The translations under genes were made by a program, and so were the position numbers. The notes beneath the pieces were generated by a model, which was given only the letters and a program-made list of their open reading frames with translations, had not been told where the DNA came from and did not search any database. This document shows, in pieces, positions 1,889 to 30,207 of a stretch of DNA of 32,293 nt. Position 1 is the stretch's first letter. Every line of letters starts with the position of its first letter. Source of the stretch: an uncultured Methanosarcinales archaeon (GTDB lineage: Archaea > Nanobdellota > Nanobdellia > Woesearchaeales > CAYMBN01); contig CAYMBN010000013.1 in the NCBI GenBank assembly GCA_964388715.1, positions 1 through 32,293 on the forward strand, in the 5' to 3' direction.

Positions 1889-3031
1889 TTACTTTTTCTT
1901 CTTCAATCCTTTCTCCAATGCTTGTTTAATCTCTTTTACTGTTCTACCCCAATGAAACTCTTTCTTAACAGTTTGCCGTGCAGCTTTACCAACTCTACCA
2001 ATATTACTTGGATTCATCAACAAAAACTCAATCTTTCTCGCCAAAATATGATAATTCCCTTTTGGAAAACTATAACCATTCTCTTTATTTTTAATATAAC
2101 TTTTTATATTACCCACTCTAGTAGAAACCACAGCCAACCCACATGACATTGCCTCTAATGTAGCAAGTGACGTTGTTTCTGTCAAACTTGGTAAAACAAA
2201 AATATCCATTGCTTGCAAATAATCAACAACATTATTAACAGAACCAGTTAACATAACATTCTTCATACCACCTAACATCTTTTCAAGTTGATGAACTCCA
2301 CCACCAACTATTAACAAAAATACATTTTTATTATTCTTACTAATCATAGAAAACGCTCTATATAATGTAACTAAATCTTTTTCCCTACCAATCCTACCAC
2401 AAAAACCAATCACAGTTAACCTAGGATCAATCCCAACTTTCTTTTTTGAATTTGCTTTATTAAAACTAGGTTTAAATGTTTCAATATTAGTTCCAAGTTG
2501 AACAATCACTTTATTTGTTTTAATCCCAATCTGTTCAAACATATTAGAAACCTCAACAGAAGGTACCATTAATACATCTGACTGATTATAAATCCTTTTA
2601 ACATACTTTTTTATAAAAAGACTAACCCAATTCTTTACAAACAATGGCACAGGAAGACTTTTTGAAAACAATTCCCATTCAATTGAATGAATAAAATTAG
2701 TCACAGGTTTCTTATACCTCTTAGCAAGTCTCATAACCTTTACTCCAATTGGCCCAACTGTCTGCACCCATACAATATCAGCATCACTCACAAACACAGC
2801 CAAATCTTTTTTACTTACTTTTGTCAGATTAATATCAGCAACTTGCCAATCTCTTATTGGAAATCTAACAACTCTATACTCTTTAGACTTAATTTTTTTA
2901 CCTTTAAAATTAGGTGCAAGCACAGTTATTTCATATTCTTTAGAAAGTCCTGGTAAAACTTCTGACAAAAACCTTGCAATACCATCCCATCTAGGTAAAA
3001 ACGAATCAGTTGCAATAAGTAACTTTGTCAT
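1889..3031 (-). CDS. Glycosyltransferase family 4 (GT-B)
   Basis: TDSFLPRWDG N-terminal motif, GRIGREKD, and E-x7-E motif in DIFVLPSLTETTSLATLEAMSCG. Confidence 0.92.
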   Translation of the reverse strand: MTKLLIATDSFLPRWDGIARFLSEVLPGLSKEYEITVLAPNFKGKKIKSKEYRVVRFPIRDWQVADINLTKVSKKDLAVFVSDADIVWVQTVGPIGVKVMRLAKRYKKPVTNFIHSIEWELFSKSLPVPLFVKNWVSLFIKKYVKRIYNQSDVLMVPSVEVSNMFEQIGIKTNKVIVQLGTNIETFKPSFNKANSKKKVGIDPRLTVIGFCGRIGREKDLVTLYRAFSMISKNNKNVFLLIVGGGVHQLEKMLGGMKNVMLTGSVNNVVDYLQAMDIFVLPSLTETTSLATLEAMSCGLAVVSTRVGNIKSYIKNKENGYSFPKGNYHILARKIEFLLMNPSNIGRVGKAARQTVKKEFHWGRTVKEIKQALEKGLKKKK

Positions 3032-3672
3032 TTTATCTTATAAAAAACCTCAGCTCTCTTAACACCAGCCTTCCATCCATTCTTAATAGCACGCCAATAA
3101 ACTGCTGGAAGCAATTGTAACATCACAAATCCTTGACTTTTGAATTCTCTTAATGCTTTAACCTTTATCTTAAATGTTTTTGAAACATCAATAACCAATT
3201 TAGGATAATTAGTTGAAAGTTTAACAGGACTCCACACATCAAAACTGTAAACATCACACTTATACTTTAGAATCCCAATTGTTTTTATAACAATTTCACG
3301 CACAGCCCTATGATCAGGATACATATCATCATCAACATGTGTAAATATTTTATTTGGTTTATGTTTTTTAATTAAAGCAGCAACCCTCAGATAAATCTTT
3401 CTTTTCTTAATCTCTTCCTTTATCTTAAGATCAGGCACACCTAAAAAATAAGTTTTCTTACATCCAAGAATCTTATCACCTTTAATTGCTTCTTTAACTC
3501 TAGTTTCAATAGTATGCTTTTTTCTTAACCACCAATTACCTTGTTCACCATACGAGAATATAACATTAAACACATCATGTCCTTCTTTAGCATATTTTGC
3601 TATGGTTGCACCCAATCCAAATGCTTCATCATCAGGATGTGCACAAAATACCATAATTGTTTCTTTTACCAT
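3028..3672 (-). CDS. PIG-L/LmbE-family N-acetylglucosaminyl deacetylase
   Basis: AHPDDE metal motif, R..EA, (H>Y)PDH, K..AL....SQ. Overlaps the GT4 gene by 4 nt. Confidence 0.9.
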   Translation of the reverse strand: MVKETIMVFCAHPDDEAFGLGATIAKYAKEGHDVFNVIFSYGEQGNWWLRKKHTIETRVKEAIKGDKILGCKKTYFLGVPDLKIKEEIKKRKIYLRVAALIKKHKPNKIFTHVDDDMYPDHRAVREIVIKTIGILKYKCDVYSFDVWSPVKLSTNYPKLVIDVSKTFKIKVKALREFKSQGFVMLQLLPAVYWRAIKNGWKAGVKRAEVFYKIK

Positions 3673-3793: not shown

Positions 3794-4486
3794 ATGGAAT
3801 TATTAGATATTGTCAACAGTTGTATTGACTGGCTTAAAAATCCAGAACTAATCAAAGGATTAATTATTAATCAAGCTTGGACACCTTTTATTATTCCTTT
3901 TGGTATTAGTGAAATTACAATAAATAGTAAAGATTCAATTGACCTTAGGTTGTCTGATGAATTCAATGAATCAAAATACACTAATTTACCTAAAAATTTC
4001 ACTTCATTAGATTATTTAAATGTAGCAAGTTCAATTATTCATGAATTTTATGAAGGAGAAGGCGAATGTAAAGAATATAGTATCCTTACTTATAAGACCT
4101 ATTTAAGATTAATCAAACTAAATAATAGGTCTGAACTAAAGAAAAGTGTCAGGATTGTTGCTGGAAAATATTTTGGTGAAATTAGCCACATGGCGCTAGA
4201 AATTAAGGATGTAGATCAAAAATTTTATCCTTATGAAACAACAATGCATACTCCCTATTTGTTACCAGAAGATGTGAAGGGATATTCTCTTAATACAAGG
4301 GATGATAGAAAATATTATATTACTCAATTATGGATTAAGACATTTCCAGGAACGTGGATTTTTAGACCTACTTGGAATATAGCGTTATACCCTGGGGGTG
4401 CAATTGGTTTTAGTATTAAAATTATAAAAGATATAATTTTGTATAAAATGAAATCAATTAATAACATATCTCAACCTAATTCTTAG
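3794..4486 (+). CDS. Hypothetical protein, possible transglutaminase-like cysteine protease fold
   Basis: 230-aa ORF. GECKEYS and SHMALE resemble the Cys and His motifs of transglutaminase-like proteins. Confidence 0.5.
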   Translation: MELLDIVNSCIDWLKNPELIKGLIINQAWTPFIIPFGISEITINSKDSIDLRLSDEFNESKYTNLPKNFTSLDYLNVASSIIHEFYEGEGECKEYSILTYKTYLRLIKLNNRSELKKSVRIVAGKYFGEISHMALEIKDVDQKFYPYETTMHTPYLLPEDVKGYSLNTRDDRKYYITQLWIKTFPGTWIFRPTWNIALYPGGAIGFSIKIIKDIILYKMKSINNISQPNS

Positions 4487-4520
4487 TTTTTTAGAAATTA
4501 ATAAATTATATCACACCACT

Positions 4521-4580
4521 CAAGTCTTGCGAAGAACCTAAATTTAAGAGTGCACAAAGTATGATTTAGGTAGTTTTCAC
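4521..4580. repeat. Hairpin repeat family 1, copy A
   Basis: CAAGTCTTGCGAAGAACCTAAATTTAAGAGTGCAC (4521-4555) is identical to 5036-5070. ACCTAAAT/ATTTAGGT stem. Confidence 0.9.
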
Positions 4581-4594
4581 ATAAGAATAACTAT

Positions 4595-4963
4595 TTATTC
4601 AATCTTCAAAGCTTTCATTATTTTGTCAAGCTTTTCATTAATCATCTCAATATCCTTACTAGAAACCTTATCAGAACCACTTTTCCCTTTTTTTGCAAAA
4701 CAATCATCACAATAGACTGGTTTGCTTGAAGTTGGTTTAAAAGGAACTTCACATTCAACACCACAAGAAGAACAAATAACTTTAGTCATCTCAAAATCAC
4801 GCCTATTTCTGCTACCATGTTTACGATCTCTACCAGAACCTCTTCTACCTCTTCCTTTAGGCCGATCTTCAAAACTACCTCTATCTCTGCCACCTCTACT
4901 TCGAGACCTACCTTTAGAATCTCTTTTGCTTCTTCCTCCTCTTGAACGTTCAAATCTTGGCAT
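4595..4963 (-). CDS. CxxC-x17-CxxC zinc-ribbon domain protein with Arg/Gly-rich N-terminus
   Basis: CSSCGVECEVPFKPTSSKPVYCDDCF motif. BRE/TATA-like AACCTTATATAC about 25 nt upstream. Confidence 0.88.
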   Translation of the reverse strand: MPRFERSRGGRSKRDSKGRSRSRGGRDRGSFEDRPKGRGRRGSGRDRKHGSRNRRDFEMTKVICSSCGVECEVPFKPTSSKPVYCDDCFAKKGKSGSDKVSSKDIEMINEKLDKIMKALKIE

Positions 4964-5030
4964 AATTTGATTAAAAATGCCACCAGTATATAAGGTTATG
5001 TGAAATTATTGAAGAAAAAGTCAAAAAATA

Positions 5031-5114
5031 CCAACCAAGTCTTGCGAAGAACCTAAATTTAAGAGTGCACGAAGCACGTTTTAGGTTAAATTGAGCTCTT
5101 TTCGCACTTGATGG
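5031..5114. repeat. Hairpin repeat family 1, copy B (long imperfect inverted repeat)
   Basis: Nested stems CCA/TGG, CAAGT/ACTTG, GCGAAGA/TCTTTTCGC (with bulge), AACCTAAA/TTTAGGTT and GTGC/GCAC. 35-bp identity to copy A. Confidence 0.9.
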
Positions 5115-5132
5115 CATATTAAATAAAAAATA

Positions 5133-5242
5133 TGCGCCGGCTGGGACTGTCGCAGATCTTCTCTTTGTCGCAGAGACTTTCTGATTCGAACCCAGATCAA
5201 AGGCTTGGAAGGCCTCTATCCTAGCCATTAGACTACCGGCGC
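5133..5242 (-). tRNA. tRNA-Gly (anticodon TCC at 5209-5207) with 38-nt intron (5147-5184) at position 59/60
   Basis: Acceptor stem GCGCCGG/CCGGCGC-A. Anticodon arm GAGGC-CTTCCAA-GCCTT. T stem CTGGG/CCCAG with the TTCGAA|T loop interrupted by an insert that forms a bulge-helix-bulge. CCA is not encoded. Confidence 0.95.
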
Positions 5243-11708: not shown

Positions 11709-11769
11709 AACACGCCCTTTAGAACTATGATTGAGCTTGATTATTTAAATTTTTGGGATAATTATACGA

Positions 11770-11888
11770 GCATAGTGTCCATGCCATCTTTTTGTAAAAA
11801 ATAATTATTCGGTTCGTAAGACAATAATATCAAAAACTTTAATGGTTAATAATGAGTTTTTGTATTTTTTACAGGCATGACACTATGC
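11770..11888 (+). repeat. Structured repeat family 2, copy A (candidate ncRNA or MITE-like element)
   Basis: Terminal inverted repeat GCATAGTGTC/GACACTATGC plus internal stems. Homologous to 30059-30201, and 11855-11889 is identical to 30168-30202. Confidence 0.9.
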
Positions 11889-11930
11889 AATACAGATAAT
11901 TATTTAAATACTATAAAACAGCTATATTTA

Positions 11931-30006: not shown

Positions 30007-30052
30007 TTTTTATTTAAGAGAAGTGAGGTATTTATAAAGGTTTTGTTTTAAA

Positions 30053-30207
30053 GTATGTGCATAGTGCCTGTGCCATATTTTTGTAAAAAATAATAATTCG
30101 TATTGTAAAACAATTGTGTCAAAAACCTTAAAGAAGGGATATACTGTTTTTATTAATATTTAGAATTAGTTTTTGTATTTTTTACAGGCATGACACTATG
30201 CACATAC
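30053..30207 (+). repeat. Structured repeat family 2, copy B (candidate ncRNA or MITE-like element)
   Basis: Terminal inverted repeat GTATGTGCATAGTG/CACTATGCACATAC. Same internal stems as 11770-11888, with a loop 24 nt longer. Confidence 0.9.

Follow-up and report, generated by a model that had tools for sequence, protein, structure and literature searches.

A relocated tRNA-intron RNA and its degenerate duplicate probably flank a passenger CxxC gene behind tRNA-Gly in a Woesearchaeota-like archaeon

Introduction

Two copies of a direct repeat enclose a single gene just behind tRNA-Gly(TCC) in the window analysed here, the whole 32,293-nucleotide stretch that is contig C13 of the archaeal genome G000 (1.3 Mb, 96% complete). 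What are these repeats, and why do they stand on either side of one gene at a tRNA? A preliminary description had read them as single-strand recombination sites of integron attC or REP type bounding a mobile cassette or, alternatively, as regulatory RNA bound by the product of the enclosed gene. The reading reached below is a different one: the tRNA-proximal repeat, copy B, houses a small element (X) whose homologues are tRNA introns, while the distal repeat, copy A, is a degenerate duplicate.

Results

The repeat and its setting

The features of the locus are as follows.

3028..3672, minus strand: PIG-L family gene, the synteny anchor that follows tRNA-Gly(TCC) in relatives
3794..4486, plus strand: orphan ORF of 230 aa, convergent, a second accessory gene between tRNA-Gly and PIG-L
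4516..4581, minus strand: copy A, degenerate duplicate of B, with an identical 3' arm (4521-4555)
4595..4963, minus strand: CxxC-x17-CxxC gene (PF23477/TIGR04272, 122 aa) for an Arg/Gly-rich zinc-binding protein
4985..5000, minus strand: BRE/TATA-like element, which by promoter consensus we take to be the promoter of the CxxC gene
5031..5115, minus strand: copy B, a complete BHB-type cassette with its outer stem formed by 5107-5115 and 5031-5039
5133..5242, minus strand: tRNA-Gly(TCC) gene (exons 5185-5242 and 5133-5146), the likely source of a read-through transcript
5147..5184, minus strand: T-loop (59/60) intron of tRNA-Gly, 38 nt, unrelated to X

The repeat is identical over exactly 35 nt (4521-4555 and 5036-5070), as had been claimed, and the 16 further nt said to carry four mismatches do agree at 12 positions (P ~2e-4). 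With only ~6e-11 exact 35-mer pairs expected in the window, the identity and its extension exclude chance. Other structural claims of the preliminary description were equally sound: the interrupted hairpin of ~84 nt folds over 5031-5115, the two copies enclose one gene together with its presumed promoter, and the gap between copy B and the tRNA 3' end, given as ~20 nt, measures 17 nt. As minus-strand RNA, copy B folds with -24.6 kcal/mol (z -3.3), and copy A by itself displays no significant structure (z -0.6 to -1.6). The argument that the apex of copy A stays paired through G-U on the plus strand fails, the relevant strand being the minus strand, where the change of GTGC to ATAC breaks the pairs. 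Nor do the copies belong to a hairpin family: G000 holds two matches even at 9 mismatches in 35, a covariance model again returned just copies A and B, and searches for a genome-wide repeat family gave none.

No homologue of the 230-aa ORF was found by sequence; its Atlas neighbours, at scores of 0.92-0.93, are viral hypothetical and transglutaminase-like proteins, which is a lead only. The window's other hairpin family (11746-11889 and 30035-30202) comprises elements of ~125-145 nt with inverted ends that are unrelated to X, with roughly ten related copies across the genome. Elsewhere in G000, two small genes spaced by 570 nt (C1:216210 and 216780) are each preceded by an exact direct repeat of 38 nt, at the end of which stand a Shine-Dalgarno sequence and the start codon; a related leader lies at C4 ~21160, and these may share a cis-regulatory role as leaders.

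Copy B houses a BHB-bounded element, X

Within copy B, the following parts are distinguished, all on the minus strand.

5103-5106 with 5043-5046: central helix, 4 bp
5040-5042 and 5101-5102: 3-nt bulge on the 3' side and 2-nt bulge on the 5' side
5041..5100: element X, expected to be excised as a (circular) RNA of 60 nt, with homologues among the T-loop introns and stand-alone small genes of further order members
5065..5077: apical GYGC/GCRY stem-loop of X, present in 21 of 22 copies and covarying
5091..5096: GCUCAA motif of X, present in 20 of 22 aligned copies

On the tRNA strand, copy B runs from an outer stem through a TGCG helix and the 2-nt bulge into the 60-nt X, which ends CGCA-AG, followed by the third bulge base and the outer stem. 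Where X is hosted by a tRNA, TTCG of the T-loop pairs with CGAA to form the helix, and the T-stem serves as outer stem. The flanks of copy B derive from the T-arm of tRNA-Gly with compensatory changes, and compensated changes in helix and outer stem are common to B and to genome G102. Free copies carry the helices TGCG/CGCA (G000, G102), TTTG/CAAA (G205) and TCCG/CGGA (G249), while in G159 the helix TCTG/CACA retains three of four pairs. B, G102, G205 and G249 all combine a 4-bp helix with a 3-nt bulge and an outer helix; the second 3-nt bulge of a strict hBHBh' motif is lacking, as the covarying register gives a 2-nt 5' bulge. The BHB of copy B is of the relaxed type, as in the tRNA-hosted copies. 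Copy B is not a tRNA intron itself, since it lies outside the tRNA, but its homologues are in 14 genomes and in the metagenome contig L115.

In an unfitted MAFFT alignment, the lower and apical helices of X are 92% paired, and five of eight pairs show two-sided changes. Paired fraction, two-sided counts and score were reached by 0-1 of 500 shuffles and slid controls scored lower, while 101 of 500 shuffles reached the pair-type count; as kin in the alignment are non-independent, these counts are support and carry no P value. The middle stem is ambiguous between two possible registers: it is 64% paired on the fitted alignment and the covarying register is the best in 15 of 22 copies, while circular MFE folds pick a different one. 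A GNRA loop at the circle junction occurs in 16 of 22 copies, weak evidence because 9 of the 13 T-loop introns of G000 likewise end GAAAG. The covariance models of Rfam 15 matched X neither in the window nor at five other loci.

Copy A duplicates B over its full length but has lost 10 nt of the 5' arm that hold GCUCAA, as well as the apical stem, and it has no outer helix of its own in the BHB register. It is probably dead and could at most serve the CxxC mRNA as a 3' stem-loop. Even decay does not explain a damaged 5' arm beside an identical 3' arm; a recent duplication that was then damaged, gene conversion, or selection acting on the 3' arm may account for it.

Distribution and housing of X

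X was counted in 22 of 401 sampled order-level, Woesearchaeota-like genomes, G000 included, and in metagenome contig L115; the large searches used strict filters and uneven depth (a first model for G001-G149, a second for 240 later genomes, a third for ~50), and the count is thus a floor. Six of the 22 genomes are unpublished (G120, G207, G182, G244, G374 and G205). A DNA search of the 401 genomes with B gave five informative matches, four of them T-loop 59/60 introns and the fifth, in G102, behind tRNA-Gly(TCC); the set was extended by patterns and three covariance models, every match being read in context. X is housed in T-loop introns in 14 genomes (and L115), behind tRNA-Gly in three and as a stand-alone element in five, with the isotypes of X-bearing tRNAs assigned by eye:

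In a tRNA-Gly(TCC) intron: G120, G128, G002, G207, L115
In a GCC-type tRNA-Gly intron: G171, G236, G071, G289
In a tRNA-Gln intron: G091, G182, G244
In a tRNA-Glu intron: G129, G374
In a tRNA-Arg intron: G223
Behind tRNA-Gly(TCC), with gaps of 17, 6 and 5 nt: G000, G102, G205
Stand-alone with BHB-like ends: G159, G249
Stand-alone, lacking a BHB: G306, G049, G161

Every model search returned one X match per genome. A TATA-like box lies 20-23 nt upstream of X in G159, G249 and G306, where there is no tRNA.

The X core of copy B is 0.91-0.94 identical to those of L115 and G120; ordinary T-loop introns show identities of 0.08-0.62 across genomes (25 pairs). In the sister genome G102 identity to B is 0.68 (shuffle maximum 0.65), below the non-sisters L115 and G120, and 9 of 15 homologues lie at 0.58-0.69, a conservation that is partly ascertained because homologues were found by similarity to B. 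This pattern would fit uneven rates and also horizontal spread. The sisterhood of G000 and G102 (SH-aLRT 97; RpoA' 76% identical) comes from a quick-method RpoA' tree of 28 rows that leaves out G036, G289 and G244, whose sequences are partial or missing; it indicates that the free state of X lasted across two families. A family search around G102 returned G102 alone. The one genome behind an independent eviction in family f129 is G205, whereas the other claims also stand on published records.

X is not universal in detectable form. The broadest model, run on 40 near-complete genomes, gave seven matches at E<=0.5, of which one was credible (a training sequence) and one doubtful, and in a phylum-wide draw of 148 genomes X was found in G000 and in none of the other 147. 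Of four pattern scans of IMG/VR, two gave no match, the third at least 120 (among 80 inspected, a crude hairpin filter let one through, which proved not to be X) and the fourth one match, within coding sequence; GenBank phages gave none. Two metagenome scans gave 0 and 7 matches, L115 being the real one among the latter.

Several candidates were set aside. Most pattern matches in 22 and 28 of the 401 genomes were chance and were dropped after context reading. Model matches in G072 and G104 are other T-loop introns, that in G101 (E 0.027) overlaps a probable gene start, those in G059, G066, G031, G017 and G013 are coding (E 0.15-0.38), and that in G044 (E 0.52), which looks like a diverged member, was not counted. 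At L253 (G071), the T-arm of tRNA-Gly(GCC) holds a second insert directly before the X intron.

The slot behind tRNA-Gly(TCC)

The tRNA-Gly(TCC) gene was missed by ARAGORN because of its 38-nt T-loop intron; Rfam detects its 5' part. PIG-L and glycosyltransferase genes lie downstream of this tRNA in G000, L115, G120, G128 and G002, separated from it by 0 to 4 or 5 variable genes, which bears out the proposal of a tRNA hot spot for accessory genes. At the orthologous locus X is found inside the tRNA in L115, G128, G002 and G120. Relatives with one hairpin and no gene, which the preliminary description had proposed looking for, do occur: G102 carries the cassette at the same site with neither the CxxC gene nor a second copy. 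The cassettes of G000 and G102 can still be aligned (74% over 95 columns), but the introns of the two tRNA-Gly genes show no relationship (identity 0.32). A six-T tract separates tRNA-Gly from copy B, and read-through may thus be low. At L016 (G024), a short-type CxxC-x17-CxxC gene follows tRNA-Gly(TCC), and X and the repeats are absent.

The CxxC gene

The PF23477/TIGR04272 gene is single-copy in G000, and Woesearchaeota and Nanoarchaeota MAGs are among the nearest relatives of its protein that have named records. Two Methanosarcina mazei members of the family are described as binding zinc (PMC12704099). Among 51 other CxxC loci, which include duplicate views of some places and two with little upstream DNA, 14 are preceded by a similar promoter motif, and 50 lack flanking direct repeats of more than 13 nt; at the remaining one, the repeat is a tandem gene copy. 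No credible X match was present among the 28 CxxC loci and 10 tRNA loci scanned. All five other X carriers tested have the CxxC gene, each time on a contig other than that of X. By these comparisons, the gene would be a passenger with its own promoter that is elsewhere unlinked to X. Tandem near-identical short CxxC-x17-CxxC genes occur at the Methanomicrobiales loci L047 and L050.

Splicing machinery and other tRNA inserts of G000

G000 encodes both EndA and RtcB, and 13 of the 29 tRNAs found in it have 59/60 introns, so that the genome has the enzymes and the other introns expected of a host for BHB introns. EndA is a single subunit of 177 aa (C2:54148-54678, minus strand), with no paralog by tblastn, and among PDB entries it is closest to the Nanoarchaeum equitans enzyme and not of epsilon2 type. 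DPANN lineages with many disrupted tRNAs are described as having alpha4-type EndAs with an L3 loop (PMC5829648). In G000, the 59/60 introns of relaxed type, at least 13 in number, have this single 177-aa EndA to serve them.

Other inserts were noted. tRNA-Ala(GGC) (C3:45570, plus strand) contains a T-loop intron of 101 nt, far longer than the others, which may house a further small RNA. Tandem repeats of the tRNA 3' end, starting with the T-loop, follow the gene at C3:113034-113300 (minus strand) and C8:41293-41640 (plus strand) in G000 and at L243 in G129; they are separated by palindromic inserts of ~70-110 nt that resemble mini-elements integrating at the T-loop. The 16S rRNA gene on C15 has an AT-rich insert of ~105 nt within a conserved segment, probably an rRNA intron, at a site that we take to be near E. 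coli position 790.

Discussion

Taken together, the data make it probable that the locus consists of a relocated tRNA-intron RNA, X, and of a dead duplicate that lies on the far side of a passenger CxxC gene. Homology of X across its housings, BHB geometry, synteny, the EndA and RtcB genes and the loss of motifs from copy A are observed; the transcription, cleavage and circularisation of X, its function and the order of events are inferred. The ancestor of G000 and G102 may have placed a duplicated tRNA-Gly T-arm containing X just behind the tRNA; as the two are sisters, a single eviction in that ancestor is the simplest reading, and tandem tRNA 3'-end duplicates at two other G000 tRNAs and in G129 point to a possible route. 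The tRNA-Gly would then have taken another intron, and what was left of the T-arm would have become an outer stem of B's own that keeps the BHB geometry. Read-through from the tRNA-Gly promoter would generate a 3' trailer carrying B, EndA would cut its BHB and RtcB would close the 60-nt circle, a mechanism that follows BHB biology as described elsewhere (PMC7714728, PMC12558985). X is thus probably released as a circle by these enzymes. Later, and in the G000 lineage only, the CxxC gene would have landed behind B with its promoter, accompanied by local duplication of the cassette, and the duplicate, A, would have lost the X motifs.

The proposal of a mobile one-gene cassette drew on direct repeats that flank one gene at a tRNA, and relatives with one hairpin and no gene in a variable slot agree with it. 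Like integron attC sites and REP/RAYT elements, B is an imperfect hairpin with extrahelical bases beside a single gene. By the attC consensus, one strand carries a RYYYAAC core site at one end and GTTRRRY at the other; a complete R''/R' pair is absent from both strands of both copies, with one GTTRRRY heptamer in B and none in A. Unlike those systems, the locus shows no array alternating with genes, no multi-copy family as in REP or IS200/IS605 (two copies in G000, one match per carrier) and no linkage to a recombinase or HUH nuclease: both tyrosine recombinases are encoded on other contigs, and no Y1 transposase was found in the 96% complete genome by a search with PF01797. Since CxxC homologues lack flanking repeats and homologues of B are tRNA introns, the recombination-site reading is largely refuted and is now very improbable. 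The other early idea, operator RNAs through which the CxxC protein would regulate its own gene, was right that RNA is the relevant kind of molecule; binding by the zinc ribbon gains no support. The protein is basic, its family is described as zinc-binding, and copy A falls within the 3' region of the gene, but B lies upstream of the promoter and hence outside the mRNA, X and CxxC genes occupy different contigs in all five other carriers, and no X accompanies the other CxxC loci scanned, which leaves autoregulation scarcely credible.

X could also lack any function and be a mobile BHB intron or hairpin moving among tRNA T-loops and further sites, with B as a displaced tRNA 3' fragment (an attR-like relic) and with BHB ends that keep insertions harmless or re-mobilisable. 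Its occurrence at one position in at least four isotypes resembles the intron transposition described for Thermoproteales, where one family likewise occupies several isotypes (PMC4033280, bioRxiv 10.64898/2026.10.13.758758), and fragments of tRNAs driven by mobile elements have been described (PMC3293823); T-arm-like flanks of B, tRNA 3'-end duplications in G000 and G129, a similarity that departs from the species tree and a patchy distribution point the same way. However, similar introns recur within a genome in those Thermoproteales accounts and other intron types do so here, whereas X gives one match per genome and has free forms with TATA-like boxes; an intergenic splice site protects nothing, yet four different compensated BHB versions persist, and no viral carrier emerged from the IMG/VR patterns or GenBank phages. 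We therefore regard this reading as unlikely. A further proposal concerns the 3' arm of copy A, which might pair with the 5' arm of B so that EndA alternatively excises a 575-nt circle (4526-5100) carrying the CxxC gene. It can coexist with the relocated-intron reading and would explain why A conserves its 3' arm only: the 35-nt identity covers exactly that arm, the two duplexes have equal energies (-22.4 versus -21.8 kcal/mol) and the read-through RNA folds 99% in the long form. The long form is nevertheless favoured with shuffled spacers too (mean 0.90 in 20 shuffles); repeated hairpins behave this way in general, and the pairing was rejected as evidence of function. Co-transcriptional folding would favour local B, T-tracts and the CxxC promoter intervene, the unpaired bases of the 3' arm are identical too, which suggests recent duplication or gene conversion, and the arrangement is seen in one genome only; nested splicing, and with it such an added role for copy A, is improbable.

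Returning to the relocated intron, whether X serves its host is evenly balanced on comparative grounds. A function is favoured by the single copy in each genome, by the conserved motifs, by splice ends that were rebuilt in several ways at sites with no tRNA to rescue, and by the TATA-like boxes of stand-alone copies; the patchy distribution, an identity that does not follow the species tree and the failure to find a target argue against it. Tentatively, X may be a guide- or protein-scaffold-type small RNA that acts in stable-RNA metabolism through its GCUCAA bulge and apical stem, a view held somewhat below even odds. No convincing target was found in partial rRNA (the middle of 23S is missing from the assembly), SRP RNA or RNase P RNA. 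GCUCAA was rejected as an antisense guide to 16S, 23S or SRP RNA, its 6-7-bp pairings with G-U being at chance level, and X is not a missing SRP or RNase P RNA, as both are present in G000. Box C is RUGAUGA and box D is CUGA; C-like boxes occur in two of 22 X copies and D boxes in two, none having both, and inspection for H/ACA features gave no consistent ACA or K-turn. G000 encodes Cbf5 and L7Ae.

BHB introns at 59/60, transposition of introns and small RNAs hosted in or behind tRNAs are already known. The ARMAN-2 pre-tRNA-Cys and -Pro introns described in PMC3239211 share with X the 59/60 position, a helix with a 3-nt bulge, a relaxed second bulge and presumed EndA processing; X differs in that its sequence and structure are conserved from family to family and in that some of its copies lie outside tRNAs. 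Archaeal C/D box sRNAs, as presented in PMC7994747, have the same housings as X (tRNA introns, sites behind tRNA genes and own promoters) and include a circular small RNA encoded in the tRNA-Trp intron, but none of the 22 X copies combines boxes C and D, a K-turn or ACA is not evident, and the search for a target yielded none. BHBs outside tRNAs that release circles, as in X, are reported for the 5' UTR intron of Haloferax HVO_1309 (PMC7714728), whose circle is small, and for the circular SRP RNA of Thermoproteus (PMC7994747). In those accounts neither is homologous to tRNA introns, while X forms a homologous series from intron to free-standing element. No paper on X was found in open-access full texts, and a 2026 Asgard preprint reports no general route by which archaeal tRNA introns arrive.

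X thus presents one homologous series, hosted by four tRNA isotypes, placed directly behind a tRNA and standing as a gene by itself, which makes intron eviction and domestication directly testable. The chances are about equal for and against X being an undescribed, host-functional small RNA of Woesearchaeota-like archaea, mostly circular and lacking C/D or H/ACA hallmarks, for which T-loop introns are hosts that can replace one another and which has moved out of them at least twice, rebuilding its own splice-endonuclease site or gaining its own promoter as it did so. If so, the window would record an intermediate stage, with X evicted to a tRNA trailer. A functional X would be a new small-RNA class in reduced DPANN genomes, and its copies would offer a naturally occurring series of compensated substrates for an EndA of a single subunit.
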